Positions 4,498-50,855 of a DNA stretch of 64,000 nucleotides are shown here, in pieces. Both the position numbers and the translations under genes were made by a program. The stretch comes from a virus. How positions within the stretch are numbered: position 1 is the first letter of the stretch; every line of letters begins with the position of its first letter. The notes under the pieces were generated by a model. The model had not been told where the DNA came from. It worked only from the letters and a program-made list of their open reading frames with translations, and searched no databases. Location: positions 1 through 64,000 of IMG/VR virus record IMGVR_UViG_3300021375_000017, one strand, 5' to 3'.

Positions 4498-5067
4498 ATG
4501 TATTATATTTACTTATTGAGAGATGATTATGGTGATGTCAAATATGTTGGTCAAACACAACAGATTGATGTTAGGAAAAGAGACCACAAAAGATTAAAAC
4601 CACCACATACATTTGAGATTTTATATGAAAATCTTAAAGTGTCTGATGCCAAGATGTTGGAAATAGAAAATATAGATAAGTATGATACATATAGAAATGG
4701 ATGGAATAAATCCTCTGGTGGGGAAGGATTTGATGATTATGAAAGAAAGGGTATTGGGGGAGTAAAGAAAGGAAATGTGCCTTGGAATAAAGGTAAAAAG
4801 GGATGTTTTAGTGAAGAAACTATCCAAAAGTTTAGTAATACAAGAAAAGGTATTGCCTGGAGTAGAAAACTTACTGACAAACAAATCACACAAATAAGAA
4901 ACTTGTATCAAGAACAACCACATGTTGATGGTGTTGGAGATGTAGCAAAAAATGGAAGAAAAATGTCTTATATTCAAGCATTTTGTAAGAAATACTGTAG
5001 TGATTATAATATAACACCACAAGGAATGAAACGTATTATATTAAAGGAGTGTTGGGCAAATGTATAA
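4498..5067 (+). mobile_element. GIY-YIG homing endonuclease between the terL split-intein halves
   Basis: YYIY...KYVGQT...R...H...E...N nuclease motifs and a NUMOD-like PWNKGKKG..SEET. Confidence 0.85.
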
Positions 5068-6244
5068 AATAAACAACAATATAAAAGTAAAGACACCAAC
5101 TGGATTTCAATCATTTAGTGGAATACAGAAAGTTTTCAAACCATTTTATCATTGGATTATTTTTGATGATGGAAGTGAGATAAAATGTTCTGATAATCAT
5201 TCATTTGGGAGTGAGAAGATAAAGGCATCTTCTCTAAAACTTGATGACATTATTCAAGGAAAAAAAGTTGTATATAATGAAATAGTTGAGGAAGGAATAT
5301 ACTTATATGATTTATTGGATGTAGGGGAAGAAAACCTATACATTACCAATAAAATAGTTTCACATAATTGTGAGTTCCTAGGTTCTGTTGATACACTCAT
5401 TGCGCCATCAAAACTTAAAACATTAGTCTATGAGAATCCTATTCAGAGAAATGCTGGATTAGATGTCTTTGAAACAGTCAAAGAGAATCATGATTATATT
5501 ATGACTGTTGACGTTGCCAGAGGAGTTGGTGGAGACTACTCTGCATTTGTTGTTATTGATATTACCACATTCCCACATAGATTGGTCGCAAAGTATAGGG
5601 ATAATGAAATCAAACCAATGTTATTTCCAAGTGTCATCTATGAAGTAGCAAAGAATTATAATGAAGCATTTATACTCTGTGAGGTCAATGACGTTGGAGA
5701 CCAGGTGGCTAGTATTCTTCAATATGACCTGGAGTATCAAAACTTGTTAATGTGCTCTATGAGAGGTAGAGCAGGTCAGATTGTTGGTCAAGGATTCTCT
5801 GGTAAGAAGACACAACTTGGTGTCAAGATGTCCAAAACTGTAAAGAAAGTTGGTTCTCTCAATCTTAAAACAATGATTGAAGAGGATAAACTCATTCTCT
5901 GGGATTATGAGATTATTTCAGAACTGACTACATTCATTCAGAAGAACAATTCCTTTGAAGCAGAAGAAGGATGTAATGATGACCTTGCAATGTGTCTGGT
6001 AATCTATGCATGGATGGTCGCACAGGATTATTTTAAAGAACTAACTGATCAGGATGTCAGAAAGAGATTATATGAAGAACAGAAAAACCAGATTGAACAG
6101 GACATGGCTCCATTTGGTTTCTTAGATGATGGTTTGGGTGAAGACAATTTTGTAGATGGTGATGGAGACAGATGGTACACACAAAACAATAAAATGGATG
6201 AATATGGAAACACTGCTGGTGGTTGGGAACTCTGGAATTACTGA
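5060..6244 (+). CDS. gp17: 103-aa split-intein C-fragment (5060-5368) fused to the terminase large subunit C-terminal nuclease part
   Basis: Intein block B CSDNH, block F YDLLDV and block G VSHN, then the C-extein CEFLGS with VDVARG and DDLAM motifs. Confidence 0.95.
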   Translation: MYKINNNIKVKTPTGFQSFSGIQKVFKPFYHWIIFDDGSEIKCSDNHSFGSEKIKASSLKLDDIIQGKKVVYNEIVEEGIYLYDLLDVGEENLYITNKIVSHNCEFLGSVDTLIAPSKLKTLVYENPIQRNAGLDVFETVKENHDYIMTVDVARGVGGDYSAFVVIDITTFPHRLVAKYRDNEIKPMLFPSVIYEVAKNYNEAFILCEVNDVGDQVASILQYDLEYQNLLMCSMRGRAGQIVGQGFSGKKTQLGVKMSKTVKKVGSLNLKTMIEEDKLILWDYEIISELTTFIQKNNSFEAEEGCNDDLAMCLVIYAWMVAQDYFKELTDQDVRKRLYEEQKNQIEQDMAPFGFLDDGLGEDNFVDGDGDRWYTQNNKMDEYGNTAGGWELWNY

Positions 6245-6474
6245 TGGATTTAGATGGTCAGATAAAACTTGGACACTTACTTCTGAACGATAGGAAGTGT
6301 AGAACTTGTGGAGAGACAAAGAACTTGATAGAAGGTTTTTATAGGACAAGAAAAGATAGAGGGCCTGTCGCATCTTCTTATTCTTACGAATGTAAAGAGT
6401 GTACTGTTAGAAGAGTTGTACAGAATAGAAAGAAAATGACTCCATTTGTTGATTGGAATTATCCAGATTGGTGA
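6243..6474 (+). CDS. Small zinc-finger protein (CxxC...CxxC)
   Basis: CRTC and CKEC motifs. Likely start MDLDGQ overlaps the terL stop. Confidence 0.55.
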
Positions 6475-6552: not shown

Positions 6553-8745
6553 ATGGCGACTCCTCAATTATCTCCAGGCTTAATTGTCAGAGAAGTTGAC
6601 TTAACAGTAGGAAGAGCAGATAACGTTCTTGATAACATCGGTGCAATTGCCGGTCCATTTGAACTTGGACCAGTAAATGAGGCGATTGACATCACGACAG
6701 AACAAGAACTCATTAATTCCTTTGGTAAGCCACTTTCTACTGACAGACAGTATGAGTACTGGATGACGGCATCTTCCTACCTGTCGTATGGTGGTGTACT
6801 TAAGGTGGCCAGAGTTGCTGGTTCTACATTGGGTAACTCCAATGCTGGTGCTGGAGTTGCCTCTACATCGATGACTGGTAATGGTAGAATTGATAACTAC
6901 GATGACTACCAGGCCAATCACACAACTGATACTACTTGGAACTACGCAGCTAAGAACCCTGGTAAGTGGGCAAACAATCTGAAAGTATGTGTTATTGATA
7001 ATGCTGCTGACCAAACAATTGGAATCAATACTACTAACCCTGGTACCAGTGGAGCACTGGTTGGTAACGGTGTTACTGTAAGTCTCAGTGGTGTTGTTAT
7101 TCCTGGTGCAGGTACTACTTCAGTATTCAACGGTTACCTCAAAGGTATTATTACTGGTGTTACAACTGATGCCACTAGTGGTGCTAGTTCAATTGACGTT
7201 AAAATTGTTTCCAGAGTTTCTGGAAGCACCGAAACTAAAATCAATTATCAACAGAGTAATAGTGCTGCATCAATCGCAGTTTCTGACACTGTAAACTTTG
7301 TTAATAACTCTGGTATCAGCACAGGTACTTCACAAGCAGCAACAACTTCTGTTGACTGGTATGATCAACAAAGTCTTGGACTCACCAATTCCACAGTTTT
7401 TTGGAAGTCAATTGCACCGAGACCAGTAGCGTCAAACTATGTTACTCAGAGAAAAGGTGGAAATGACGGTATTCACGTTGTAGTTGTTGATGACACTGGT
7501 TCAGTAACAGGTATTCAAGGAAACATCCTTGAGAAGTTTACGAATCTTTCTAAGGCAGTAGATGCTACCTCTGATGGTAACGCGCCAACGAAGACTTACT
7601 ATAAGAACTTTGTTGCTGACAATTCAGCATACATTTATGCAGGTAAGAATCCTTCACAAGAAGCTGATACTTATTGGAACACTAGTCCATTGGCTTCAGG
7701 TTTCTCTGCGGCATTCACTCCAATCACAACTGGAGCAGGTCTTTGGGGATTAGAAGCACAGGGTGTTACCTTCTCTTCTATTGGTTCAGTAAGTTACACC
7801 TTTACTGGTGGTGTTGATTATTCCGCAAACGGTGGAATGGAGGCTCAACTGGGAGACTTGAACACTGCTTACGATTTGTTCTCTAATAAAGATGAGATCG
7901 AAGTTGATTACGTGATCATGGGTCCTGGTTTGAGTGATGAGTCACAATCACAAGCCAAGGCAAATAAAGTCATCTCTATTGCTGAGGCGAGAAAAGATTG
8001 TGTTGCAACTGTGTCACCACACAGAGCAAACGTTGTTAATGTTACCAACACAACCACTGCTACAAGTAATCTGTTGAGATACTACTCACCACTTACTTCT
8101 TCATCGTATGCAGTCTTTGATAGTGGTTATAAGTATACTTTTGATAGATTCAATAACGAGTTCAGATACATTCCATGTAACGGTGATGTTGCTGGACTGA
8201 TGACTAGAACTAACCTGGTTGCCTTCCCATGGTTCTCACCTGCAGGTACTCAAAGAGGAACTCTGAATAATGCCATCAAGTTGGCATATAATCCCACTAA
8301 GGCTCAAAGAGATCAACTTTATCCTGCAAGAGTTAACTCCATCATCAATCAAAAAGGTAGTGGAATCATTCTCTTCGGTGATAAGACTGGTCTTGGTTAC
8401 GCTTCTGCATTCGACAGAATCAACGTAAGAAGACTGTTCCTCACAGTTGAACAGGCACTTGAAGGAGCTGCAAATTCTCAACTCTTTGAGCTCAATGATA
8501 GTAACACAAGGTCGAATTTCGTTAACATTGTTGAACCATACTTGAGAGATGTTCAGGCTAAGAGGGGTGTTTACGACTTCCTCATTGTTTGTGATGATAC
8601 CAACAATACTCCTGAAGTAATTGACAACAATGAGTTTAGGGCAGACATCTACCTGAAACCAACCAAGTCGATTAACTTTGTCACTCTCACCTTCATTGCT
8701 ACAAGAACTGGTGTCCAGTTCTCTGAAGTTGCAGGTCGTGGTTAA
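6553..8745 (+). CDS. gp18: Tail sheath protein
   Basis: LSPG..VREVDLT N-terminus, WFSPAG, RINVRRLF and IKP.KSINFVTL-type C-terminus. Confidence 0.95.
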   Translation: MATPQLSPGLIVREVDLTVGRADNVLDNIGAIAGPFELGPVNEAIDITTEQELINSFGKPLSTDRQYEYWMTASSYLSYGGVLKVARVAGSTLGNSNAGAGVASTSMTGNGRIDNYDDYQANHTTDTTWNYAAKNPGKWANNLKVCVIDNAADQTIGINTTNPGTSGALVGNGVTVSLSGVVIPGAGTTSVFNGYLKGIITGVTTDATSGASSIDVKIVSRVSGSTETKINYQQSNSAASIAVSDTVNFVNNSGISTGTSQAATTSVDWYDQQSLGLTNSTVFWKSIAPRPVASNYVTQRKGGNDGIHVVVVDDTGSVTGIQGNILEKFTNLSKAVDATSDGNAPTKTYYKNFVADNSAYIYAGKNPSQEADTYWNTSPLASGFSAAFTPITTGAGLWGLEAQGVTFSSIGSVSYTFTGGVDYSANGGMEAQLGDLNTAYDLFSNKDEIEVDYVIMGPGLSDESQSQAKANKVISIAEARKDCVATVSPHRANVVNVTNTTTATSNLLRYYSPLTSSSYAVFDSGYKYTFDRFNNEFRYIPCNGDVAGLMTRTNLVAFPWFSPAGTQRGTLNNAIKLAYNPTKAQRDQLYPARVNSIINQKGSGIILFGDKTGLGYASAFDRINVRRLFLTVEQALEGAANSQLFELNDSNTRSNFVNIVEPYLRDVQAKRGVYDFLIVCDDTNNTPEVIDNNEFRADIYLKPTKSINFVTLTFIATRTGVQFSEVAGRG

Positions 8746-38931: not shown

Positions 38932-39367
38932 GGATGTTTATGACATCACAGTTGAAGGAGAACATCATTATATTCTTGGTAATGGTGTCGTGTCTCACAA
39001 TTCTGGCCTTAAGTATGCAGCGTCTACAATCATCTATCTCTCAAAGAAAAAGGAAAAGGATGGAACAGAAGTGGTCGGCAATCTTATCAAGGCTAAGACT
39101 GCTAAGTCGCGTTTAAGTAAAGAGAATAAAGATGTTACTATACGTCTCTATTACGATGAACGTGGTCTTGATAGGTATTACGGTCTCTTAGAACTTGGAG
39201 AACTTGGTGGACTATGGAAAAACGTTGCAGGACGTTATGAGATGGATGGTAAGAAAGTCTATGCTAAGGCCATCCTGAAAGAACCTGAGACTTATTTTAC
39301 ACCTGAAGTGATGGAAAAACTAGATGAAATCGCAAAAGAACAATTCTCTTATGGTTCGTCATTATGA
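38891..39367 (+). CDS. uvsX: 37-aa split-intein C-fragment (38891-39001) fused to the UvsX C-terminal part
   Basis: AAGAGG ribosome binding site. MERIVKSI...VYDITVEGEHHYILGNGVVSHN is followed by SGLKYAAS...KSR...GLDRYYGL. Confidence 0.92.
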   Translation: MERIVKSIKKIKTEDVYDITVEGEHHYILGNGVVSHNSGLKYAASTIIYLSKKKEKDGTEVVGNLIKAKTAKSRLSKENKDVTIRLYYDERGLDRYYGLLELGELGGLWKNVAGRYEMDGKKVYAKAILKEPETYFTPEVMEKLDEIAKEQFSYGSSL

Positions 39368-39866
39368 TGTTGTTCCAGAGTCATACTGTAAAAAACTAAT
39401 TGAGATATTTGAAAACTCCTCTAATCAGGAGTTTATCAATAATGATCACAAACCATGTTTCAGTCAGGTTAATCTGAGTAAAGAAAATCCTGAAATGGTC
39501 AGACAAATCATTCCCATTATTAAAGGTGTACATACTCTGTATAAGAAGGAAACCAAATCTTATTTTCTTCCAGAGTTAAATGCCCTTGAAGAACTTAGGA
39601 TTAAAAGATACCTTCCTAATGGTGAGGAAAGGTTTGATGAACATGTAGACGTGACTGACTATCCCTCATCAAGAAGGTCAGTTGCATTTTTATTTTATCT
39701 GAATACTAATGATGGTAATACAGTTTTTTCTAAACAGAAGTTGAACATTAAACCAAAGTGTGGTAGGGTAGTAGTATTCCCTCCTACATGGGAATATCCT
39801 CATGCAAGACTCCCCCCAACAACTAGTAACAAATACATCATGAGTACATATATTCACTATGGATAA
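39351..39866 (+). CDS. 2OG-Fe(II) oxygenase
   Basis: HVD, FLFYLN, VVVFPP.W.YPH and KYIMSTY. Confidence 0.8.
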   Translation: MVRHYDVVPESYCKKLIEIFENSSNQEFINNDHKPCFSQVNLSKENPEMVRQIIPIIKGVHTLYKKETKSYFLPELNALEELRIKRYLPNGEERFDEHVDVTDYPSSRRSVAFLFYLNTNDGNTVFSKQKLNIKPKCGRVVVFPPTWEYPHARLPPTTSNKYIMSTYIHYG

Positions 39867-40491
39867 GGTTGAATTTTTAGTTCTGAAAAATCTAATACAC
39901 AATGAAAAATACTTGAGAAAGGTTCTTCCATTCATTAAAGAAGAATATTTTGATGATACTAAATATAAGGTAATCTTCGACGAGATCTCTACCTTTACTG
40001 CTGAGTATAACGAACTCCCTACAAAAGAGATTCTCAATATTGAGATTGAAAAGAGAAGAGATATTAATGAGGACTCTTATAAACAGATTTCTCATGTAGT
40101 TAATTGTCTTGAGGACGATGTTGTAGAGTTTGATTGGTTGGTTAACACTACTGAGAAGTGGTGTCGTGACCGTGCCATTTATCTTGCCTTGATTGAATCC
40201 ATTCAGATTGCTGATGGAGGAGATGTCAAGAAGGCACCAGATGCCATTCCATCTATTCTGTCTGATGCTCTGGCAGTTAGTTTTGACAACCATGTAGGAC
40301 ATGATTACCTTGAAGATTATGAATCACGATACGAGTCTTATCACAGGAAGGAGGAGAGAATTGAATTCGATCTCGACTATTTTAACAAAATCACGAAAGG
40401 TGGGCTCCCTAACAAAACTCTTAACATCGCACTTGCTGGTTGCGTTCATCCAGAAACTAAAGTTAAAATTAGATTTAAGAAGATTTCTTGA
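39859..40491 (+). CDS. gp41: Replicative helicase, N-terminal part, fused to a 16-aa split-intein N-fragment (40441-40488)
   Basis: EKWCRDRA, SFDNHVGHDY and KITKGGLP.KTLNIALAG, then CVHPETKVKIRFKKIS*. Confidence 0.92.
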   Translation: MDKVEFLVLKNLIHNEKYLRKVLPFIKEEYFDDTKYKVIFDEISTFTAEYNELPTKEILNIEIEKRRDINEDSYKQISHVVNCLEDDVVEFDWLVNTTEKWCRDRAIYLALIESIQIADGGDVKKAPDAIPSILSDALAVSFDNHVGHDYLEDYESRYESYHRKEERIEFDLDYFNKITKGGLPNKTLNIALAGCVHPETKVKIRFKKIS

Positions 40492-41143
40492 TTATGGAAT
40501 TTGGTGCTGGTTCTCCAGTTCCAAATTTCCATCCTTCGTTTAATTTAGTATCAATATTTTCTGGTAGTATTCTTTTCCATCCCTTTGTTCCTGGTAAGTA
40601 CATTACCTTTTTTCCTTTATGTGCTTTACCTCCAAGAGATGCTCTTTGTTGTCTTCCTTGATTAGACGCCCAGTAATTGAATTCTTTAGATGCTCTTTGC
40701 TTTCCTCCAAAAGATGCTCTTTCCTTTCTACCTTCTTCTGTACTCCAGTAATAAAAATTTTTAATGTTATCTTTTAAATATTCTTGTTTTTGAGTTTCCA
40801 TTCCTTTGACCATCCATTCTTTTCTTTCATCTATTGGAACAGAAAAGAAACCAATCTTATTATCTCTACAAAATTCCCCAATTATTTTTCTATATTGTGG
40901 AGATAAGTTTGCTCCTAACATTTTCATAGACCTTAAGTCATTTGGATTTTTGTATATTTTCCATAACAAATAATGTGCTATGATATGTTCTCTAACATTT
41001 AGGTATGTAAGGTTACAATCATCATCTGTTCCTCCCATATGTTTAGGAACAACATGATGTTCGTGTAGTCCTGAATATTTTTTATAATCTTCTTTTCTTG
41101 ACTTATTGCCTTTGCATAAGTTAGAATAGATACGATCAAACAT
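40475..41143 (-). mobile_element. HNH homing endonuclease lying antisense between the gp41 split-intein halves
   Basis: HEHHVVPKHMGG...NLTYL.VREH..AHYLL. Minus-strand TATAAATA at 41166-41173. Confidence 0.88.
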
Positions 41144-41177
41144 TCCCTGTCCCTGCTACTGCTATTATTTATATAAA

Positions 41178-42353
41178 ATGTGGATTGAAAAAGAAACAAC
41201 AATTGCTGAAATCAAAACATTACTTGATAATGGATATGAAGTAGAAGTTGATTCTCCCGATGGATATGTTCCAGTTAATTTCTTTATTAACAAAGGAATG
41301 TATGATGAATATGTTTTGAGAATCGATGGCATTGATGAACTTATAAGATGCAATGCCAATCATTTATTTCAGACATCTTTGGGGTGGATGAGTGCATCGC
41401 ATCTTTATAAAAAATATAAAATAATGCATTTTTTAACCGAGAGTGGTTATAAACTTGGTAGTGTATTTAAAACAGGAAATCAAATACCTATTGTTGATAT
41501 TAATGTAAATCATCCAAATCACAGGTATTATACTAATGGAGTTTCTTCTCATAATACTGGCGTCGGGAAATCTCTATTCATGTGCCATGTGGCTAGCTCC
41601 GTCTTGCTCCAAGGGAGGAACGTTCTCTACATTACAATGGAGATGGCAGAAGAGCGCATTGCTGAAAGAATTGATGCGAACCTCTTGAATGTAAATATCC
41701 AGGAAATTGTTGACCTTCCAAAACAAATGTTTGAAACAAAGGTTACAAACCTGGCACAAAAGACTCAAGGTCACCTAATTATTAAGGAGTATCCTACTGC
41801 CTCTGCTCATGCTGGACACTTCAAATCACTTCTTAATGAACTTGCACTTAAGAAGTCATTTCGACCTGATATTATTTTCATTGATTACCTTAATATATGT
41901 TCTTCCGAAAGATATCGCGGAAATAGCACTGTCAATTCATATTCATATATTAAAGCAATTGCTGAAGAACTTAGAGGACTTGCTGTTGAAGCAAACGTCC
42001 CTATCATATCTGCCACTCAGACCACTCGTTCTGGTTATGGTAGCTCTGACGTTGAGCTTACTGACACTAGTGAGTCCTTTGGTCTCCCTGCTACTGCTGA
42101 TCTTATGTTTGCCCTTATTTCGACTGAAGAGTTGGAATCGTTGGGACAAATACTTGTAAAGCAATTGAAGAATAGGTATAATGATTACTCTGTCCATAGA
42201 CGTTTTGTTGTTGGTATTGATCGTGCCAAGATGAGATTATATGATTGTGAACAGTCTGCACAGGATGACCTTCTTGACAATGGTAAGGAAGAAGAGTACA
42301 ATAATGATGAACAAGAAAAACCTAAAAAATCATTTAGTGGATTTAAATTTTAA
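41178..42353 (+). CDS. gp41: 126-aa split-intein C-fragment (41178-41555) fused to the helicase C-terminal part
   Basis: Block B CNANH, block F IVDINV and block G SSHN, then TGVGKS, which completes Walker A. DYLNIC, SESFG and KNRY follow. Confidence 0.93.
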   Translation: MWIEKETTIAEIKTLLDNGYEVEVDSPDGYVPVNFFINKGMYDEYVLRIDGIDELIRCNANHLFQTSLGWMSASHLYKKYKIMHFLTESGYKLGSVFKTGNQIPIVDINVNHPNHRYYTNGVSSHNTGVGKSLFMCHVASSVLLQGRNVLYITMEMAEERIAERIDANLLNVNIQEIVDLPKQMFETKVTNLAQKTQGHLIIKEYPTASAHAGHFKSLLNELALKKSFRPDIIFIDYLNICSSERYRGNSTVNSYSYIKAIAEELRGLAVEANVPIISATQTTRSGYGSSDVELTDTSESFGLPATADLMFALISTEELESLGQILVKQLKNRYNDYSVHRRFVVGIDRAKMRLYDCEQSAQDDLLDNGKEEEYNNDEQEKPKKSFSGFKF

Positions 42354-42757
42354 TGACTGTAAATACTGAAGCATATCTTGAATTTGTCAATGCCGTCACC
42401 TCACAACAAAGTAAAGATCACGAAGCATTCCTCTATCGTCTTCAAGAATTGGAAGGCCAAGAGTTTCCTACCGAGCGACTGTTTACTGCTGCTGTAGGAA
42501 TGTCTGCTGAGGCAGGTGAGTTTACTGAAGTTGTCAAGAAGATCGTCTTCCAAGGTAAACCAGTAAATGAAGAAAACTTATTTCATCTGAAACGTGAACT
42601 TGGTGATATTATGTGGTATGTTGCTCAAGCGTGTATGGGTCTTGATACGACCATTGATGAAATTATTGAGATGAATGTTGAGAAACTGAAGTCTCGTTAT
42701 CCTGGTGGAGAATTTTCCGTAAAACATTCCGAAGTCCGAAAGGAAGGTGATGTATGA
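42353..42757 (+). CDS. mazG: MazG-family nucleotide pyrophosphohydrolase
   Basis: EAGEF.E.VKK, ELGDIMWY and N..KL..RYP. Confidence 0.9.
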   Translation: MTVNTEAYLEFVNAVTSQQSKDHEAFLYRLQELEGQEFPTERLFTAAVGMSAEAGEFTEVVKKIVFQGKPVNEENLFHLKRELGDIMWYVAQACMGLDTTIDEIIEMNVEKLKSRYPGGEFSVKHSEVRKEGDV

Positions 42758-43449
42758 CCTACGACTTCTCATTTGCACATTCACCTGAAGGATTTGATAA
42801 TCATATCAACGATAGTATTCGTGGATATTCAAACCTCCTAGAAGATACTGTATCGTTCTCTCGATACTTTGTGGAGGATCATACTAAAGTTGTTGATGTT
42901 GGATGTTCAACTGGTAAACTTACCAAGATGATTATTGACAACAATCCTAATCGTCAGTACGCACATTATGTGGGTGTAGAACTTGCTGGTAGTTTTTATG
43001 ATGATCTTGAGGAACGTCATATAGAGGTTCGTAAAGAATACCCTGGTGCATTGTTAGAATGGGTTCGTGGTAATGTCACTAACTATGAGTTCAAGAACTG
43101 TTCTCTAGTAACATCACTGTTTACTCTACAGTTTATGCCCAAGACTACCAGACAAGATACGATCAATAAGATCTATAATGGTCTCAATGAAGGTGGTGCA
43201 TTTATCTTTGCTGAGAAGTTGATGTGTGAGAATGCATTCTTTCAAGAACTTCTTACCTTTAATCATTATGATTACAAGAGAAAGACTTTCAGTGCAGAAC
43301 AAATCATGGATAAGGAGAAACAACTTCGTGATATGTTGAAACCTAATACATGGTCTGAACTAAGAGATATGGTGATGACTGCGGGGTTCAAAGACTGTCA
43401 GATCTTCTGGAGAAACCATCAGTTCGTTGGAGTTATTGCAATTAAGTAA
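42754..43449 (+). CDS. cmoA: CmoA-like carboxy-S-adenosylmethionine synthase homologue
   Basis: Collinear with bacterial CmoA by eye: S.RGYSN, VD.GCS.G, FTLQF, R...I.KIY.GL..GGA...EK, H.D.KR, AGF and F....AIK. Confidence 0.75.
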   Translation: MTYDFSFAHSPEGFDNHINDSIRGYSNLLEDTVSFSRYFVEDHTKVVDVGCSTGKLTKMIIDNNPNRQYAHYVGVELAGSFYDDLEERHIEVRKEYPGALLEWVRGNVTNYEFKNCSLVTSLFTLQFMPKTTRQDTINKIYNGLNEGGAFIFAEKLMCENAFFQELLTFNHYDYKRKTFSAEQIMDKEKQLRDMLKPNTWSELRDMVMTAGFKDCQIFWRNHQFVGVIAIK

Positions 43450-44846
43450 TGTGTGGAATTATTGGTGGATTTGATATTCCACAAATTGAAAAAGGTTTGA
43501 ACTCTATTATTCATAGGGGACCAGATAACCAACAGATTGTCCAAATGGAGAACATCTATTTTGGACATGTTCGTTTGTCTATTATTGATACTAGTAATGA
43601 GTCAAATCAGCCATTTGTTTATGGTGACACCACCATGATCTTCAATGGTACCATTTGGAACTATCGTGAGTTAAGAGAAGAATTGAATATTGAAACAAAG
43701 ACTTCAGGTGACACTGAGGTACTTTGTGCTATCTTGGATAGGTATGGTATTGAAGGATTGAATAAAGTTCAAGGAATGTTTGCCATTGCATTTACTCAAG
43801 GAGACGGTTCTATTACTATTGTGAGAGACCGTCATGGTGAAGTTCCTCTTCATTACTCTCTCCTTACAGGTCTCTTTCCATCATTCTCTTTCTGTTCAGA
43901 GATCAAAGGTCTTTTGGCAATGGGGGAGATTGGTAAAACAGTTAAAATGTTAGAACCCGGATCATTTATTAAGGTTTCCTCTGATTACTCTGTAAAAGAG
44001 GGGTATTGGTATAACGTCAGAGAACATATCGAAGATACTTCTACATGGAACTTTAATGATTCTAAAGCGATGGTTTATAGAAACATTGTGATGGGTTCAT
44101 TTGAAAGAACTGTTGCCGATGTTCCTGTTGCATGCTTACTCTCTGGTGGTATTGATTCTGCTATCACAACTCTCATTGCATCTAAACACATCCCAAACTT
44201 GGTGACATATACTGCAGTCCATGATGAGAACTCAAAAGATTTAAAGTCTGCTAGAAAAGTTGCTAAATATTTGGGAGTTGAACTCCGAGAAGTTATAGTT
44301 CAACCACCTACCATCGATGATGTTAATGATGTTATCAATACCATTGAGATGCCATATAAGGCCCAAGTAGAGATTGGATATCCTTGTATTCAACTTGCAA
44401 AAAGAATCCATGAAGATGGTTTTAAGGTGATTATGTCAGGTGAAGGTAGTGACGAACTCTGGGCATCCTATGGTATGAGTTACCATGGTATTAAGGATAA
44501 AGGTTGGACTGACTATAGAATAGGACTCTTTGGTTCACAACATCGTAAAAATTTCACAAGATGTAATAAGATTTTTATGAAGTATGGTATTGAATGTAGA
44601 CTACCTTTTTTAAACACTCAGTTAGTAGAGACTGCACTTGGTCTCAGTCAAGATACTGTTTGGGACGGTAAAGCTAGACCTAAAGCAATTCTCCAAGAGG
44701 CTTTCAGAGGTCAACTCCCAGATGATATTGTTGATAGAAAGAAGGTAGCATTTCAGGATGGTATGGGAATCAAATCTCTTTACGAAGACATTGTAGATTC
44801 TCCAAAAACATATTACACTAAACACTATAAGAAACAGTTCTCATGA
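43449..44846 (+). CDS. Asparagine synthetase B-like glutamine amidotransferase / ATP-dependent amidase
   Basis: Ntn MCGI, HRGPD, H.RLSIID, FNG.IWN, SGDTEV, PP-loop LSGGIDS, SGEGSDE and R.PFL. Confidence 0.88.
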   Translation: MCGIIGGFDIPQIEKGLNSIIHRGPDNQQIVQMENIYFGHVRLSIIDTSNESNQPFVYGDTTMIFNGTIWNYRELREELNIETKTSGDTEVLCAILDRYGIEGLNKVQGMFAIAFTQGDGSITIVRDRHGEVPLHYSLLTGLFPSFSFCSEIKGLLAMGEIGKTVKMLEPGSFIKVSSDYSVKEGYWYNVREHIEDTSTWNFNDSKAMVYRNIVMGSFERTVADVPVACLLSGGIDSAITTLIASKHIPNLVTYTAVHDENSKDLKSARKVAKYLGVELREVIVQPPTIDDVNDVINTIEMPYKAQVEIGYPCIQLAKRIHEDGFKVIMSGEGSDELWASYGMSYHGIKDKGWTDYRIGLFGSQHRKNFTRCNKIFMKYGIECRLPFLNTQLVETALGLSQDTVWDGKARPKAILQEAFRGQLPDDIVDRKKVAFQDGMGIKSLYEDIVDSPKTYYTKHYKKQFS

Positions 44847-46012
44847 AACTCCCCTACAAATTACAAGATGTTTATGACGGTGAAGCTCAACAGAAGTTCA
44901 CTGTCATTTCTACGTTCGCTGGTGGAGGTGGTTCGTCCACTGGTTATCGTCTTGCAGGTGGTAAGATCCTCTGTATCAATGAGTTTGTAGAAGAGGCAAG
45001 AAATACTTATTCCGAGAATTATCCATCTACTACTATTTTACCTGGTGATATTAAGGAGTTGACAGGTAAAGACTTCCTTGAAGCCACTGGTCTCAAACAA
45101 GGAGAACTTGATATTCTTGATGGTTCACCACCATGTTCTGCATTCTCTGTTGCAGGTTCAATGTGTCATAACATCTATGAAGAAGAGAGGGTAGACTTAT
45201 TTGGAAACACCTACACCACTAGAGTTAGTGGTAAACATTCTGATGGTTGGGGAAAGACAAAAACTTATTCTGACGGTAAACAAGTTGAAAATATTGAAGA
45301 TTTGTTTTTTGAATATATCCGTATAGCAAAAGACATTCAACCAAAAGTAATTGTTGCAGAGAATGTCAAAGGATTGACTGTTGGTGAAGCTAAAACATAC
45401 TATGCAAAGATTACAAATGCATTTACAGAAATTGGATACCTAGTCACTTCTAAAGTAATGAAAGCATCAAATCATGGTGTGGGACAAGGACGGGAGAGAC
45501 TTATCTTTATTGGAGTTCGTGAAGATATTGCAGATAAGATCGGAATGTTGATTACTGGAGTCAATAGTATATTTCCCAGACCTTCAAAAGAATCAACTAC
45601 AATTTCTGATATCATTGATGGTGTTGAGAATAATTCTGAAGATGTTAAAACTCTTACTGAAAAGTTGGTAAGTAGTAACATATACAAAAATGTTATCAGT
45701 AAGATGCCCAAGAATCCAGATAAAGTTTTGACTGGTATGGACTATCACCCTAAAGGACATTGTTTTAATACAAAGAGAGTCTCTTTAAAAAAACCATCTC
45801 CAACTCTTACTGCTAGTGGTGGTTTGATTCATTGGAACGAAGATCGTCCATTGACTGTTCCAGAACTTAAACGTATTCAATCACTTCCTGATGACTTTGT
45901 TTTGACTGGTACATATTCTCAACAGTCTGAAAGAGTGGGTAGAATGGTTCCACCTCTGATGATGAAAGCAATAGCAGAAAACATTTACAAAGAAGTCCTA
46001 TCTAAACTATAG
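44843..46012 (+). CDS. DNA cytosine-C5 methyltransferase-fold enzyme, predicted carboxymethyltransferase
   Basis: Motif I FAGGGG, IV GSPPC, VI ENV, VIII Q.RER, IX R.LT..E..RIQ, and X VGRMVPP (Arg in place of Asn). Confidence 0.88.
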   Translation: MKLPYKLQDVYDGEAQQKFTVISTFAGGGGSSTGYRLAGGKILCINEFVEEARNTYSENYPSTTILPGDIKELTGKDFLEATGLKQGELDILDGSPPCSAFSVAGSMCHNIYEEERVDLFGNTYTTRVSGKHSDGWGKTKTYSDGKQVENIEDLFFEYIRIAKDIQPKVIVAENVKGLTVGEAKTYYAKITNAFTEIGYLVTSKVMKASNHGVGQGRERLIFIGVREDIADKIGMLITGVNSIFPRPSKESTTISDIIDGVENNSEDVKTLTEKLVSSNIYKNVISKMPKNPDKVLTGMDYHPKGHCFNTKRVSLKKPSPTLTASGGLIHWNEDRPLTVPELKRIQSLPDDFVLTGTYSQQSERVGRMVPPLMMKAIAENIYKEVLSKL

Positions 46013-46061
46013 AAACTCTTCAATATAAATAATGATAATAGAAGTTGTTAGAACTAAAACC

Positions 46062-47534
46062 ATGTCGGATATGAGTAATCTGTACAGAGCTTATTCAGCT
46101 GTACACAGTTCTGAAGTTAGTGATCAGTTGAGTGAGTCTAGAGATCTCATTTCTGATATGCAGTTCAACCAACTGAACTCCTCTGATCTTCAGGAAGTTG
46201 CTGAAGAGATTCTGGAAGAGATGTTTGAACTTAGTCTTGATATTGAACAATCTTCTGATATCATTGCTGATATTTTGAGTGAGGCACTGAAGACCAGTCA
46301 GTCTGACCTCAAGTCACAAAAGATTGACTATATTGGAGAAGCATTTGATGCTGCTCTTGAGAATGGTCATACTGTAGAAAGATTCCTTGGTTATAGAAGG
46401 TCTAAGAAAGTTCAGGAGAACTTCCACAATACTTCCAACGAAGATCGTAGTAGTAAGAGACTTCACGAAGCCCTGATTGCTCAAGAGAGAAAGAACATCA
46501 AAGAAGGTATTCTTTCCCTGATTGAGAAGAAGACAAAAGATTCTTCTTACCTTGAGACCAACATGAAGAAGAGAGCGGAGAATAATGAGAAGGCCCGTAA
46601 GGACATGGAGAAGATGGGTTCAATGAAGAACCCCCAACTTGAAGAGTTCTCTCAAATCAGAAAAGATTGGAGTAGTGCCTACTCTTCCATCTATGAGAAG
46701 ATGGATCCTGTTGGTCAGGAAGATGGTGACATCGATAATGATGGTGATGAGGATAAGTCTGATAAGTATCTTGCTAATCGTCGTAAGGCCATTGGTAAGT
46801 CTATGGGTAAGAAAGGTAAGTGTGAGAAGTGTGGTAAAGATCCCTGTGAGTGTGATAAGAAAGAAGTAGAAGAAGGTTACAAGGAACTTCCTAAGAACAA
46901 GATGTTCCGTAAGGCAGGTAACCTAGGACGTGAAGCGATCAGTACTCCTATTGATCCTGAGAAGCGTCAAAAGGCATATGATCGTTCTAAGAAAATCGTT
47001 AAGACTCTCAACAAAGCAAACGAAGAAGTCCAACAGGTTGATGAAGCAATCACCAGCGAAAAGGGTAAAGAAAAAATGAAGAAGATGATTGATGCTCGCA
47101 CCACTGATTCTGGTAGAGCAAAGCCAGGTAAAGGTCAAAACGTTAAAGACATTAGGCACATTGGTCGTGCTAATGTTGATGGGTATGGTGGTACACCTTC
47201 CAATCTAAAGGTTGCCAAGAACCCAGTAAAATCTAACTTCACTGGTCTCAATAGTGGAACCGGCAACAAAGCAGCAAAAAGAGCAGCAGCACTAAAGAAA
47301 GAAGAAGTAACATTCTCTGAAGCTGAACTGAAAGCCATTCAGACAAAGGTTGATGCATGGGATGTTGAAGAAGGTTATCAGCGTAATCCCGAGAAGGGAG
47401 AGGCTCAAGCAAGAAAGTCTGAAACTTCTGGTCAAAAGACAGAGAGAAATGTCCGTGATAGACTGAAGACTATGGATCCTAAGAAGGCTGAAGCAATGAA
47501 GAAACAGATGAGAGCTGTTGGTTTAAGTGTTTGA
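46062..47534 (+). CDS. Modular late protein, probable head-internal protein
   Basis: TATAAATA at 46025. Acidic N-half, then basic modules separated by hydrophobic-X-E sites. Confidence 0.55.
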   Translation: MSDMSNLYRAYSAVHSSEVSDQLSESRDLISDMQFNQLNSSDLQEVAEEILEEMFELSLDIEQSSDIIADILSEALKTSQSDLKSQKIDYIGEAFDAALENGHTVERFLGYRRSKKVQENFHNTSNEDRSSKRLHEALIAQERKNIKEGILSLIEKKTKDSSYLETNMKKRAENNEKARKDMEKMGSMKNPQLEEFSQIRKDWSSAYSSIYEKMDPVGQEDGDIDNDGDEDKSDKYLANRRKAIGKSMGKKGKCEKCGKDPCECDKKEVEEGYKELPKNKMFRKAGNLGREAISTPIDPEKRQKAYDRSKKIVKTLNKANEEVQQVDEAITSEKGKEKMKKMIDARTTDSGRAKPGKGQNVKDIRHIGRANVDGYGGTPSNLKVAKNPVKSNFTGLNSGTGNKAAKRAAALKKEEVTFSEAELKAIQTKVDAWDVEEGYQRNPEKGEAQARKSETSGQKTERNVRDRLKTMDPKKAEAMKKQMRAVGLSV

Positions 47535-47549
47535 TATCTCGGAGTCCCG

Positions 47550-49583
47550 ATGAAAGACGTATTTAAATTTCTAAAGGACTCTAGAAAACTCCTGGAGTCC
47601 ACAACCTCTGAGAGGGCGGCTGAACTTGGTTACGAATATCGTGCCCGTGGAGTTTGGGGTGACCCAAGAACCAATAAGAGATATAGGACTGATGGTAATC
47701 GTTTCGTAGAGATTGACGAACCTAAAAAACAAGAAAGAGATCCTAAGGAAAAGGAACCCAAAACACTTTCCCAATTCAAGAAAGATGTTCCTCAACAGAA
47801 ACAACCTGAAGAGGAAGTACCTTCTGTTGCAAATCAGATGGATAGAGTTGTTCCTGGTGGACCAACTGAAACTGCAATAAGTTCAGGTGACCAGAAGACT
47901 GTTGAAAAACAACTCTCTCGTGGTAGAGAGAATGTTCAAAGTCCTGAGAGAAAGAAGCAAGTTGCTCAACAAGCATCTGATATTATTGCACAGTTACAAG
48001 CAGAGAAAGAGGCCGAAGAGAAGGCTGAACTGGAGGCAGAAGCACAGGCTCAGGCAGAATTAGAAAATCAAGAACCAGTAGAACCAGAAAAAGGTCCAGA
48101 GGATTTTAGGACTATTGATGATGTAGTTGCAGAGAAAGAAGAAGAGATTGACTATAATGATGATGAAGAAGCCTTTGAACAAGAGTATGAAGCATATGAA
48201 AAAGAAGCAGCAGAGATGATGAAGTCTCTGACTGACCGTCAAAAAAAGATGATGGAGAAAAAGTTTGCTTCTTTCACAGAAAGTTTGAAGAAGATTCCTT
48301 CTGCAACAGATAAGAAATCATTCCTTCAGTCAATGGCTCATGCAAAGTCATTTGAAGGTCGTGTGAATGCTGGTGCTGGTAAGAATAACCTTGGTTATGC
48401 TGACATTCAGAACTTAATGGCCAATCGTGATCGTTTATTGGAAGGTTATGGTGATGGATCTCCAGAACAAATCAAAAAGTTTGTACAATCTGTAAGAGCT
48501 ATTAAGGTATCTGATGAATTTGTAGATGCTTCTTTTGAAGTTCTTCCTGATGCGTTCAAAAAATCACTAAGTGGTAAGGGTCAAGTAACAACTGACAAGT
48601 ATGTGTCTGACGATAAGGCACATAAAGATATGCATTATCTTGGTAGAAATGAAGATGGTACTGCCAGAAGAGGTCCTGCTAGTAATAAAGACAGAGCAAA
48701 GTTGATGTGGAGAATCTACCTAGAACAGGGTGGACGTGATGCATACACAGGTCTTCCTCTAGACCTCCAAGCCATGGACCTAGAACATGTTCGTGGGTTC
48801 AACAATAAAGATGGTGGAAAACCTGGTAAGGTAGAGTGGGAACAAAGAGAGAATGATGATAACATGACTCTTATTAATTCCAATGTCAACCAACAGAAGG
48901 TAGACCTTTCAATGGAGGAATTCTTTAAGAAGAAGGTTGACCCTAATAAGGACAAAGGAGAAGCTGACTTTGGTGGTATTGAAAAACTATTTGACAAACA
49001 AAACCAGATTGGTACTGTTGGAGATGAGTTAGCACAAACACTTCTTGGTGAAGGTGGTAAGGGATTGGCCGAGGGTGTATCAAGAGAAATTCTTGATGAA
49101 CACTTTGCATCTGATGACAATAGTTACAATAGTCTGAGAGAAGAGTTCCGTAAGGTAGCAACTACACCAAAAGATAAGGCAAAGGCTGCTGGTATGAAGT
49201 CTAAACTTGGTAAGACACTTCTTAAAGCAACTGGTCTTGCTCGTGGTATTACTGATAAGAGTGGTAGAAGAACTGTTGCACTACAAGAAAATGTATATCG
49301 TGGTTTCTTGAAGTCCATGGCAAATGCAAAACCTGCAGACCGTCAAAAATATATGGATGGTTGGGCAGAGGCTATCAAACAGGGTAATGAGGAGAGAGAA
49401 CCAAAGGCAGTTAACCGTAAGTTACTTGAACTTGGTTTGATTGATGAGGACATCCTGAATGATAAGAAATTAGGTAAAGTTTTTAAAGAAGAATACGATG
49501 AAACTAGGAGAACATCTAAAACATATGGTAGGATGTTTATATCCAAGTACCACAAGGATAATAAATACTTCTATGGAATCTGA
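47550..49583 (+). CDS. Large protein with a C-terminal HNH nuclease domain of Cas9-HNH-like pattern
   Basis: IYLEQGGRDAYTG..LD...DLEH...DNMTL.....N..K at about 48700-48900. Confidence 0.6.
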   Translation: MKDVFKFLKDSRKLLESTTSERAAELGYEYRARGVWGDPRTNKRYRTDGNRFVEIDEPKKQERDPKEKEPKTLSQFKKDVPQQKQPEEEVPSVANQMDRVVPGGPTETAISSGDQKTVEKQLSRGRENVQSPERKKQVAQQASDIIAQLQAEKEAEEKAELEAEAQAQAELENQEPVEPEKGPEDFRTIDDVVAEKEEEIDYNDDEEAFEQEYEAYEKEAAEMMKSLTDRQKKMMEKKFASFTESLKKIPSATDKKSFLQSMAHAKSFEGRVNAGAGKNNLGYADIQNLMANRDRLLEGYGDGSPEQIKKFVQSVRAIKVSDEFVDASFEVLPDAFKKSLSGKGQVTTDKYVSDDKAHKDMHYLGRNEDGTARRGPASNKDRAKLMWRIYLEQGGRDAYTGLPLDLQAMDLEHVRGFNNKDGGKPGKVEWEQRENDDNMTLINSNVNQQKVDLSMEEFFKKKVDPNKDKGEADFGGIEKLFDKQNQIGTVGDELAQTLLGEGGKGLAEGVSREILDEHFASDDNSYNSLREEFRKVATTPKDKAKAAGMKSKLGKTLLKATGLARGITDKSGRRTVALQENVYRGFLKSMANAKPADRQKYMDGWAEAIKQGNEEREPKAVNRKLLELGLIDEDILNDKKLGKVFKEEYDETRRTSKTYGRMFISKYHKDNKYFYGI

Positions 49584-49589
49584 TAAAAG

Positions 49590-50855
49590 ATGAAAAGTTT
49601 CTTTAGATTTATTACAGAAGCAAGAAGTACACCTGTATCTGAGAAGGCCAAGAAGCTTGGTTTAGTCAGTGATGGTAGTGGTGGATGGAAAGATAGAGCA
49701 GGTAAGACTGTTGCGAGAACAGTTGGTGGTGAACTTAAGTTTACTGATAGAGGAACATCATCAGTTCAGTCTGATGGTGGTCAACAACCCGTAGCACAAC
49801 AGAGACAAGAAGTTCCTCAACAAAAGAGAGCGTCAACTGAAGAACCTACTGAGAGAAGAAGTGGTGGTGATGATGAGGAAGAAGGTGGAGATGGTAAAAG
49901 GACTGGAGAAAATGCAACCCTAGTATTTGGTAGATTTAATCCCCCAACTGTAGGACATAAGAAACTTCTTGATGCAGCTCTTCAGATTTCAGGTGATGGT
50001 GACCTGAGAATTTATCCTTCCAGATCGGTTGATCCTAAGAAAAATCCTTTAGAGACTGGTCAGAAGACAGAACTCATGAAGAAGATGTTCCCCGATCATA
50101 GTGATAATATTATTAATGATGAGAGTATCAAAACTATATTTGATGCATTGAAGTTGGCAAGTAATGATGGATTCTCAAATGTAAAAATTGTTGTAGGTTC
50201 TGATCGTGTTGCTGAGTTTGACAATCTAGCTCAGAAATACAATGGTAAACTATATGACTTTGAAGAGATTGAAACTATCTCTGCTGGAGAAAGAGATGAA
50301 GATGCAGAAGGTGTTTCTGGAATGTCTGCCTCTAAGATGAGAAAGGCTGCAACAGAGAATGACTTTGAGACATTCAGAAAAGGTATTCCTGATACTTTGG
50401 ATGATACTGCAACAAAACAGATGATGAATACTGTTCGTAAAGCAATGCAGGTTCAGACAGAATCTTGGAGTCTATGGGAAATTGCTCCTAAGTTTGACTG
50501 GAAGAACTTGAGAGAGAACTATGTAACTGGTAAGATCTTTAAGATTAATCAGTTGGTAGAGAATTTGAATACAGGATTTGTAGGTAAGATTGTTCGTAGA
50601 GGAACTAACTATCTTATTTGTGTGACAGAAGATAATATTATGTTTAAGTCCTGGATCCGTGATCTCCGTGAATATGAAGAGAAGAAACCTGATACCCGTG
50701 TTGGAAGTCCTGGTTACTTTAAGTATGCTGCCAAGATGACACCTGGTTTTGATAAAGGAGATAAGACCAATCTTCAACCTGGCGGAAAACCTTACAAAGG
50801 CCCTAAGACAAATATCAAGGAATTCATAAATAGATACAAAAGTAGAAATCTCTGA
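49590..50855 (+). CDS. Cytidylyltransferase-like (HxGH-family) nucleotidyltransferase
   Basis: FGRFNPPTVGH, VVGSDR and MSASKMR. Confidence 0.8.
   Translation: MKSFFRFITEARSTPVSEKAKKLGLVSDGSGGWKDRAGKTVARTVGGELKFTDRGTSSVQSDGGQQPVAQQRQEVPQQKRASTEEPTERRSGGDDEEEGGDGKRTGENATLVFGRFNPPTVGHKKLLDAALQISGDGDLRIYPSRSVDPKKNPLETGQKTELMKKMFPDHSDNIINDESIKTIFDALKLASNDGFSNVKIVVGSDRVAEFDNLAQKYNGKLYDFEEIETISAGERDEDAEGVSGMSASKMRKAATENDFETFRKGIPDTLDDTATKQMMNTVRKAMQVQTESWSLWEIAPKFDWKNLRENYVTGKIFKINQLVENLNTGFVGKIVRRGTNYLICVTEDNIMFKSWIRDLREYEEKKPDTRVGSPGYFKYAAKMTPGFDKGDKTNLQPGGKPYKGPKTNIKEFINRYKSRNL

Follow-up and report, generated by a model that had tools for sequence, protein, structure and literature searches.

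We analyzed a window of 64,000 nucleotides, positions 1 to 64,000 of the IMG/VR virus record IMGVR_UViG_3300021375_000017, in which three overlapping genes, cmoA, cmoY, and cmoX, probably form an operon of the CmoA-CmoX-CmoY type for the hypermodification of DNA cytosines after replication, with 5-carbamoylmethylcytosine as its product, in an uncultured marine T4-like cyanomyovirus. In the proposed pathway, CmoA would convert S-adenosylmethionine (SAM) and host prephenate into carboxy-SAM (Cx-SAM). CmoX, by means of its Cys98 and its carboxylate-binding Arg367, would then place the carboxymethyl group onto the C5 of cytosine in double-stranded DNA, probably in a GpC context and after replication, thus giving 5-carboxymethylcytosine (5cxmC). 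Finally, the PP-loop site of the long form of CmoY would adenylate the side-chain carboxylate of 5cxmC, while its N-terminal Cys-nucleophile domain would free ammonia from glutamine, to be channeled to the adenylated carboxylate for its amidation. The predicted end product is the neutral 5-carbamoylmethylcytosine (dC + 57 Da). The likely role of the operon would be to protect the phage DNA from host nucleases, given that 5cxmC blocks HhaI in the work on phage S-B43 (PMC12783734). The CmoA and CmoX steps have been shown for close orthologs and would hold here by homology, and from the comparisons given below we infer the GpC specificity, the action of the ligase on DNA, and the primary-amide product. 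The three genes are the following:

42754..43449, + strand: cmoA, carboxy-SAM (Cx-SAM) synthase, 231 residues, 85% identity to SpCmoA of phage S-B43
43449..44846, + strand: cmoY, long form, predicted 5cxmC-DNA amidotransferase (AsnB-like, glutamine-hydrolyzing), 465 residues, with Pfam GATase_6/7 and Asn_synthase
44843..46012, + strand: cmoX, DNA cytosine C5-carboxymethyltransferase, 389 residues, PDB 8YF3 match at E 3.6e-194

The chemistry of this pathway, where amide hypermodification takes natural 5cxmC as its handle, was already published in December 2025, when Yang et al. (Nat Commun 2025;17:281, PMC12783734) described the CmoA-CmoX-CmoY system of Synechococcus phage S-B43. The sequence-only reading that preceded our analysis had suspected that a similar cyanophage pathway might already be in print, and this was borne out, so the novelty is lower accordingly. 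In S-B43, SpCmoA makes Cx-SAM from SAM and prephenate with a kcat of 2.33 s-1, tenfold faster than E. coli CmoA, and SpCmoX, a C5-methyltransferase homolog, takes Cx-SAM as its sole donor and forms 5cxmC at GC motifs (PMC12783734). In the 8YF3 crystal structure, Arg350 of SpCmoX takes the position of the Asn in motif X and touches the Cx-SAM carboxylate, and the R350N mutant is inactive (PMC12783734). SpCmoY, which is homologous to asparagine synthetase but lacks a glutaminase domain, carries out the ATP-dependent ligation of glycine onto the 5cxmC carboxylate and is active on 5cxmC in both genomic DNA and polymerase chain reaction products (PMC12783734). SpCmoA and SpCmoX were characterized in vitro, in E. 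coli, and in virion DNA, where the glycyl amide is carried by ~10% of C and ~75% of GC sites, the modification being post-replicative and located at GC motifs (PMC12783734). The survey in the same paper covered 5,615 CmoX candidates and 2,251 associated ligases; the second-largest ligase cluster, represented by A0A7T0Q3R0, contains a glutamine-hydrolyzing domain that suggests glutamine-derived ammonia, and ligase clusters with unknown amines are also mentioned (PMC12783734).

The virus of the window and S-B43 belong to the same (Kyanoviridae-like) group, and in both the trio follows gp41 and mazG in identical gene order, with the difference that S-B43 has an extra open reading frame (ORF) of 76 residues between mazG and cmoA. 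CmoA is 85% and CmoX 76% identical between the two phages, with the SPPC motif and the carboxylate-binding Arg in both. It is the middle gene that differs, since it encodes 465 residues with a glutaminase domain in the window, while the glycine-using SpCmoY has 271 residues and lacks this domain; therefore, the predicted product of the window is a primary amide, whereas that of S-B43 is 5-glycylcarboxymethylcytosine. The trio is a further member of the published system, in a glutamine-using version with a predicted end product.

Regarding the first enzyme, the window CmoA is 85% identical to SpCmoA, with 94% positives, over all its 231 residues, which supports the earlier claim that it makes Cx-SAM, and its best PDB match is E. 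coli CmoA (4GEK, E 2.3e-26). Its TIGR00740 score of 109.8 bits falls below the cut-off of 193.3, but this is uninformative because the validated SpCmoA also fails with 115.6 bits; this cut-off does not cover the phage CmoA clade. At the position of R199 of E. coli CmoA, the HMMER alignment places E190 in the window CmoA, with an Arg four residues later, and this displacement is tolerated, given that SpCmoA has an identical DKEK-x-LRD segment and is highly active. A chorismate mutase (PF01817) was not found in the 92-kb record, which is half a genome, and therefore the prephenate presumably comes from the host.

The third gene product shows the following features:

45125..45136, + strand: SPPC motif S95-C98 with catalytic Cys98, identical to SpCmoX S95-P96-P97-C98
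45167..45217, + strand: 17 inserted residues (109-125) within the loop that follows the catalytic Cys, a gap in 8YF3 and SpCmoX
45941..45943, + strand: R367 codon, motif X (G-R-M-V), the counterpart of SpCmoX R350, within ERVGRMVPP, which is identical in SpCmoX

The window CmoX, whose gene is the only one with PF00145 in the 92-kb record, shares 76% identity with SpCmoX (8YF3 match, E 3.6e-194) and keeps SPPC, ENV, QxRxR, and R367, all of which are invariant across 7 CmoX homologs that come from cyanophage-like contigs and a Streptomyces phage. The SPPC motif with its catalytic Cys was the selection criterion for CmoX in the published survey (PMC12783734). The sequence-only reading had proposed that the methyltransferase installs 5-carboxymethyl-C, and both the 76% identity and the Asn-to-Arg change in motif X lend support to this. 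A parallel is found in M.MpeI N374K, an engineered carboxymethyltransferase making 5cxmC at CpG targets (cited in PMC12783734). In both enzymes, a positive residue replaces the motif X Asn, Cx-SAM is accepted, and the product is 5cxmC; however, the M.MpeI variant is engineered and carries Lys, whereas CmoX is natural and carries Arg, with GpC as the target of the S-B43 ortholog. A GpC target is plausible for the window enzyme as well, since the segment KGHCFNTKR...KPSPTLTASGGLIHW is nearly identical in SpCmoX. The window contains 1,417 GpC sites holding 11.7% of its cytosines, near the fraction modified in S-B43; both GpC (observed/expected 0.63) and CpG (0.47) are under-represented in the 64-kb window. 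The 17-residue insertion, absent from SpCmoX, is also present in a 62%-identical homolog in L057, and residues 241-300 of the variable region are, from our reading of the alignment, clearly less alike SpCmoX than the remaining protein.

Elsewhere in the family, at L123:6584-8829 (IMGVR_UViG_3300007960_000875), the long ligase is followed by a tandem pair of CmoX paralogs. Each has SPPC and the GRMVPP arginine, but their variable regions differ, which suggests that the two carboxymethylate distinct sequence motifs. In L042, L044-L047, L054, and L055, cmoY and cmoX are likewise separated by an extra ~1.1 kb.

In the long CmoY, two catalytic features can be located:

43452..43454, + strand: Cys2 codon; Cys2 is the nucleophile at the N-terminus of the glutaminase domain, and the protein begins MCGI
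44142..44159, + strand: PP-loop SGGIDS (residues 232-237) of the ATP pyrophosphatase domain, S-G-G-x-D-S being invariant in the family alignments

The best phage-isolate match of the long CmoY is gp124 of the Streptomyces phage TurkishDelight, with 41% identity over the full length (E 2e-113), and by exact-sequence look-up gp124 is UniRef100_A0A7T0Q3R0. Therefore, the window ligase falls in the predicted glutamine-dependent CmoY class, and its link to A0A7T0Q3R0 passes the network threshold used for the ligase clusters (E 1e-56, ~30% identity; PMC12783734). Both proteins share the same two domains and nearly the same length (466 residues in gp124), and gp124 also adjoins a CmoX with SPPC and GR-x-VPP and a CmoA-like methyltransferase. 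The differences are that TurkishDelight is an actinophage with the order cmoX-cmoY-cmoA and ParB-like genes upstream, while the window has the order cmoA-cmoY-cmoX and no ParB. To SpCmoY, the long CmoY is related in the synthetase domain only (residues 227-450, 21% identity, hhalign probability 97%), so that, as judged from the alignments, it is a homolog and not a member of the SpCmoY-type glycine ligases. The SpCmoY type consists of a single ATP-binding domain of ~271 residues that has a pocket for the glycine carboxylate and lacks a glutaminase domain, whereas the window protein has that domain and 465 residues.

The AlphaFold2 model of the long CmoY, built with 33 family members, has a pLDDT (predicted local distance difference test) of 93.1 and a pTM (predicted template modeling score) of 0.91, and its top Foldseek match is E. 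coli AsnB (1CT9), covering both domains with a template modeling score of 0.85 (E 4.6e-31). As in AsnB (E. coli 1CT9 and human ASNS 6GQ3), an N-terminal nucleophile (Ntn) glutaminase is joined to a PP-loop synthetase, and the catalytic Cys, Arg, Asn-Gly, and Asp, as well as SGGxDS and SGEGSDE, are common to both. C2, R42, N66, G67, and D88 of the long CmoY are invariant in the 33 family members and align with Cys1, Arg49, Asn74, Gly75, and Asp98 of AsnB; besides SGGxDS, most of SGEGSDE is also invariant across the family. These residues point to intact glutamine hydrolysis and carboxylate adenylation. The context of the long CmoY, in contrast to that of AsnB, is DNA modification and not amino-acid metabolism, and the family departs from AsnB (31% identity between the window and E. 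coli proteins) in several places. The TTIR segment of AsnB reads A-Q-V-E in the whole family, with an invariant Lys before it, D384 of AsnB is Asn, and an internal AsnB loop and ~70 C-terminal residues are missing. In AsnB, mutagenesis work assigns TTxR to the aspartate-activating site. Likewise, the long CmoY scores below both AsnB equivalog cut-offs (NF006949, 266.6 bits with a cut-off of 499; TIGR01536, 263.7 bits with a cut-off of 267.1), while E. coli AsnB clears both with 1050 and 510 bits. In profile-profile alignment, K304 and E308, both invariant in the long CmoY, fall on K98 and E102, both invariant in SpCmoY, at positions where AsnB has V and R within the TTxR segment. This K...E pair, shared by both CmoY classes, fits a common acyl substrate, which is suggestive rather than decisive. 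The proposal of the sequence-only reading that the AsnB-like enzyme amidates 5cxmC coincides with the prediction made for this cluster by Yang et al. (PMC12783734).

The trio also holds together across viral genomes. The co-occurrence check proposed in the sequence-only reading gave a positive answer, with the trio present in all of the more than 90 related viral contigs that have the flanks. An IMG/VR scan with the long ligase yielded 77 loci in which cmoA and cmoX adjoin it wherever flank exists. Long ligases with 55-62% identity show the order cmoY-cmoX-cmoA, and those with 48-49% identity, including that of a complete 109.5-kb phage, show the order cmoX-cmoY-cmoA, as in TurkishDelight. The trio is thus kept in three gene orders, down to a ligase identity of 48% and including a Streptomyces phage. 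A second scan, with CmoA, gave 80 loci at an identity of at least 85%, where the long ligase occupies the slot in 50 and a short SpCmoY-like ligase in 24, while in 4 cmoA is followed directly by cmoX with no ligase and 2 end at a contig edge. A cmoA with 98% protein identity to that of the window can be found beside either ligase. Compared with short-ligase or ligase-less loci, the nucleotide homology of the window stops at 43445-43447 and resumes at 44829-44843, that is, at the gene boundaries. From these breaks, together with the near-identical cmoA genes next to differing ligase slots, it follows that the middle gene behaves as a cassette that is exchanged within this phage population. That the long CmoY takes the slot of SpCmoY, with homology breaking at the gene boundaries, supports a role for this ligase in the same pathway. 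As further variation in this region, cmoA and the short cmoY are separated at L111:1813-2760 by an extra ORF of 315 residues (with phrog_27790 as its only match, E 4e-07), and similar gaps of ~1-1.5 kb are present in the short-ligase relatives L116, L125, L128, L136, and L142.

Among the other explanations, the one that survives best, improbable as we consider it, accepts that the operon makes 5cxmC but supposes that the long ligase adds something other than ammonia, or that the amide is processed further, for example to a TsnB9-type hydroxamate. The AsnB superfamily does have other outcomes, and our ligase matches TsnB9 (7YLZ), beta-lactam synthetase, and carbapenam synthetase by fold or sequence; the record lacks over half of the phage genome; and the ligase clusters with unknown amines in the survey would also agree with it. 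Nevertheless, the Cys nucleophile and the glutamine-binding residues, which deliver ammonia in known Ntn amidotransferases, are invariant, the closest structure is that of AsnB, and the run of overlapping genes includes no N-hydroxylase or other tailoring gene. Quite unlikely is a ligase that works before the transfer to DNA, on Cx-SAM or on a free nucleotide instead of on carboxymethylated DNA. Pfam recognized no DNA-binding domain in the long CmoY, and its isoelectric point is an acidic 5.8, but SpCmoY, with the same isoelectric point of 5.8 and likewise without a recognizable DNA-binding domain, acts on 5cxmC in DNA; moreover, CmoX retains the Arg for the free carboxylate of Cx-SAM, whose loss in R350N kills SpCmoX, and the S-B43 modification is post-replicative at GC motifs. 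Hardly credible is that the AsnB-like gene serves auxiliary metabolism, making free asparagine as a mere neighbor of the modification genes: the complete AsnB fold, the retained E332, D335, and E336, which correspond to the ASNS amino-group pocket, a TIGR01536 score only slightly below its cut-off, and the annotation of relatives as asparagine synthase by their sources are in its favor, but cmoA and cmoX flank it at every locus that has flanks, whichever of the three gene orders is used and across unrelated phage lineages, sister phages have either the proven 5cxmC-glycine ligase or nothing between the same boundaries, and the family shows the changes of TTxR to A-Q-x-E and of D384 to N, the losses of the internal loop and the C-terminal residues, and the low identity to AsnB already described.

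Some observations weigh against the amidation of 5cxmC at GpC sites by the window operon, which we still prefer. The complete 115-kb phage IMGVR_UViG_3300005323_000039 (L185; 115,197 bp with terminal repeats) contains a 48%-identical long ligase, and a whole-genome search, with a sister genome as the positive control, found neither CmoA nor a C5-methyltransferase in it. The long ligase family is hence not strictly tied to 5cxmC; the L185 ligase may amidate a different carboxylated base, and the family may also amidate other carboxylates. This exception tempers any conclusion drawn from homology only, while leaving the context argument for the window locus unaffected. In human ASNS (6GQ3), the acidic SGEGSDE cluster binds the amino group of aspartate, and given that the long CmoY retains this cluster, its residues alone cannot exclude an amino-acid substrate; we accordingly rejected the active-site residues as a decisive exclusion of aspartate. 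The function of the long-ligase class is a predicted one, the authors of the survey not having obtained a soluble enzyme from the A0A7T0Q3R0 cluster (PMC12783734). The 17-residue insertion of CmoX and its diverged residues 241-300 make the GpC specificity less than certain, and, with the record being ~48% complete, further modification genes could sit outside it. In L185 itself, the ligase lies at 4989-6413, and the next large ORF (6815-8245) starts ~400 bp downstream, with a short ORF between them, and shows a weak radical-SAM match that, with 29.1 bits, narrowly misses the cut-off.

Searches of the literature under carbamoylmethylcytosine and its synonyms brought up no report of 5-carbamoylmethylcytosine in DNA, and those on CmoX/CmoY and on 5cxmC/Cx-SAM found just PMC12783734 together with method papers using the engineered enzyme. 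What our analysis adds to the published system is the invariance of the glutaminase residues, the K...E pair shared by the CmoY classes, the three-state ligase slot, and the ligase-bearing phage without CmoA and CmoX. On balance, we incline to the view that the long CmoY makes 5-carbamoylmethylcytosine, a DNA base so far unseen in nature, and that co-circulating marine cyanophages whose cmoA genes are nearly identical differ at the same cytosines by means of middle-gene swapping. If this is true, the same cytosines would carry a free carboxylate in phages with no ligase, a primary amide in those with the long ligase, and a glycyl amide in those with the short one, a pattern of adducts that would point to diversifying selection by host defenses recognizing particular modifications. 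With its three states, the slot provides a natural setting in which to study what favors one cytosine adduct over another. The glutamine-dependent ligases are also the largest still uncharacterized part of the CmoA-CmoX-CmoY system, and taking into account that the window ligase lies between orthologs of two proven and crystallized enzymes and that marine viromes contain close variants of it by the hundreds, it offers a good alternative source of a soluble long ligase.

The operon belongs to a longer run of overlapping genes, which opens with two neighbors:

41178..42353, + strand: gp41-type DnaB helicase, C-terminal part (Pfam DnaB_C, E 9.6e-17), opening the overlapping gene run
42353..42757, + strand: MazG nucleotide pyrophosphohydrolase (Pfam MazG, E 2e-08)

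As read from the sequence, the junctions are TAATG at 42351-42355 (gp41 C-terminal part and mazG), ATGA at 42754-42757 (mazG and cmoA, gtATGAcc), TAATG at 43447-43451 (cmoA and cmoY), and ATGA starting at 44843 (cmoY and cmoX, ctcATGAaa). The three coupled genes behind gp41 and mazG, their ORFs on the + strand, and the ATGA, TAATG, and ATGA overlaps are all as first described in the sequence-only reading. Families were assigned by Pfam and NCBIfam models, and the matches of mazG and of the trio (for cmoA a class I methyltransferase, the top NCBIfam model being CmoA, TIGR00740, E 1.6e-31; Asn_synthase, E 8.5e-42; DNA_methylase PF00145, E 2e-54) are far beyond chance. The mazG gene has ~84% nucleotide identity to that of the S-RIM2 and S-T4 cyanophages. 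The downstream core genes (ribonucleotide reductase and primase-helicase) have ~79% nucleotide identity to the Synechococcus phages S-B43, S-B05, RN05-S, and RB11-B, and it is for this reason that we assign the virus to the uncultured T4-like cyanomyoviruses. The source record has 92,001 bp, with a completeness of 48% as estimated by CheckV.

A scan of positions 39000-47000 showed no excess of promoters or terminators over shuffled sequence, with 32 promoter-like sites versus 28.4 and 4 terminator-like sites versus 4.2. A near-consensus sigma-70-like site (TTGACA, 17 nt, TACAAT; 11/12) at 42274-42302, inside the 3' end of gp41 and upstream of mazG, is given as a lead only. On the 3' side of cmoX (46032-50855), where none of the ORFs shows a link to the modification operon, there are two large ORFs of 500 and 677 residues, without a Pfam family and with weak PHROG matches, followed by a cytidylyltransferase-like protein of 421 residues (phrog_395, E 1.5e-104). 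Finally, the gp41-type helicase is divided into two ORFs, 39859-40491 (N part, phrog_19 DnaB-like helicase) and 41178-42353, with the DnaB_C match of the latter starting only at its residue 127, and between them, on the opposite strand, lies a homing/HNH endonuclease gene (40475-41143, phrog_655).

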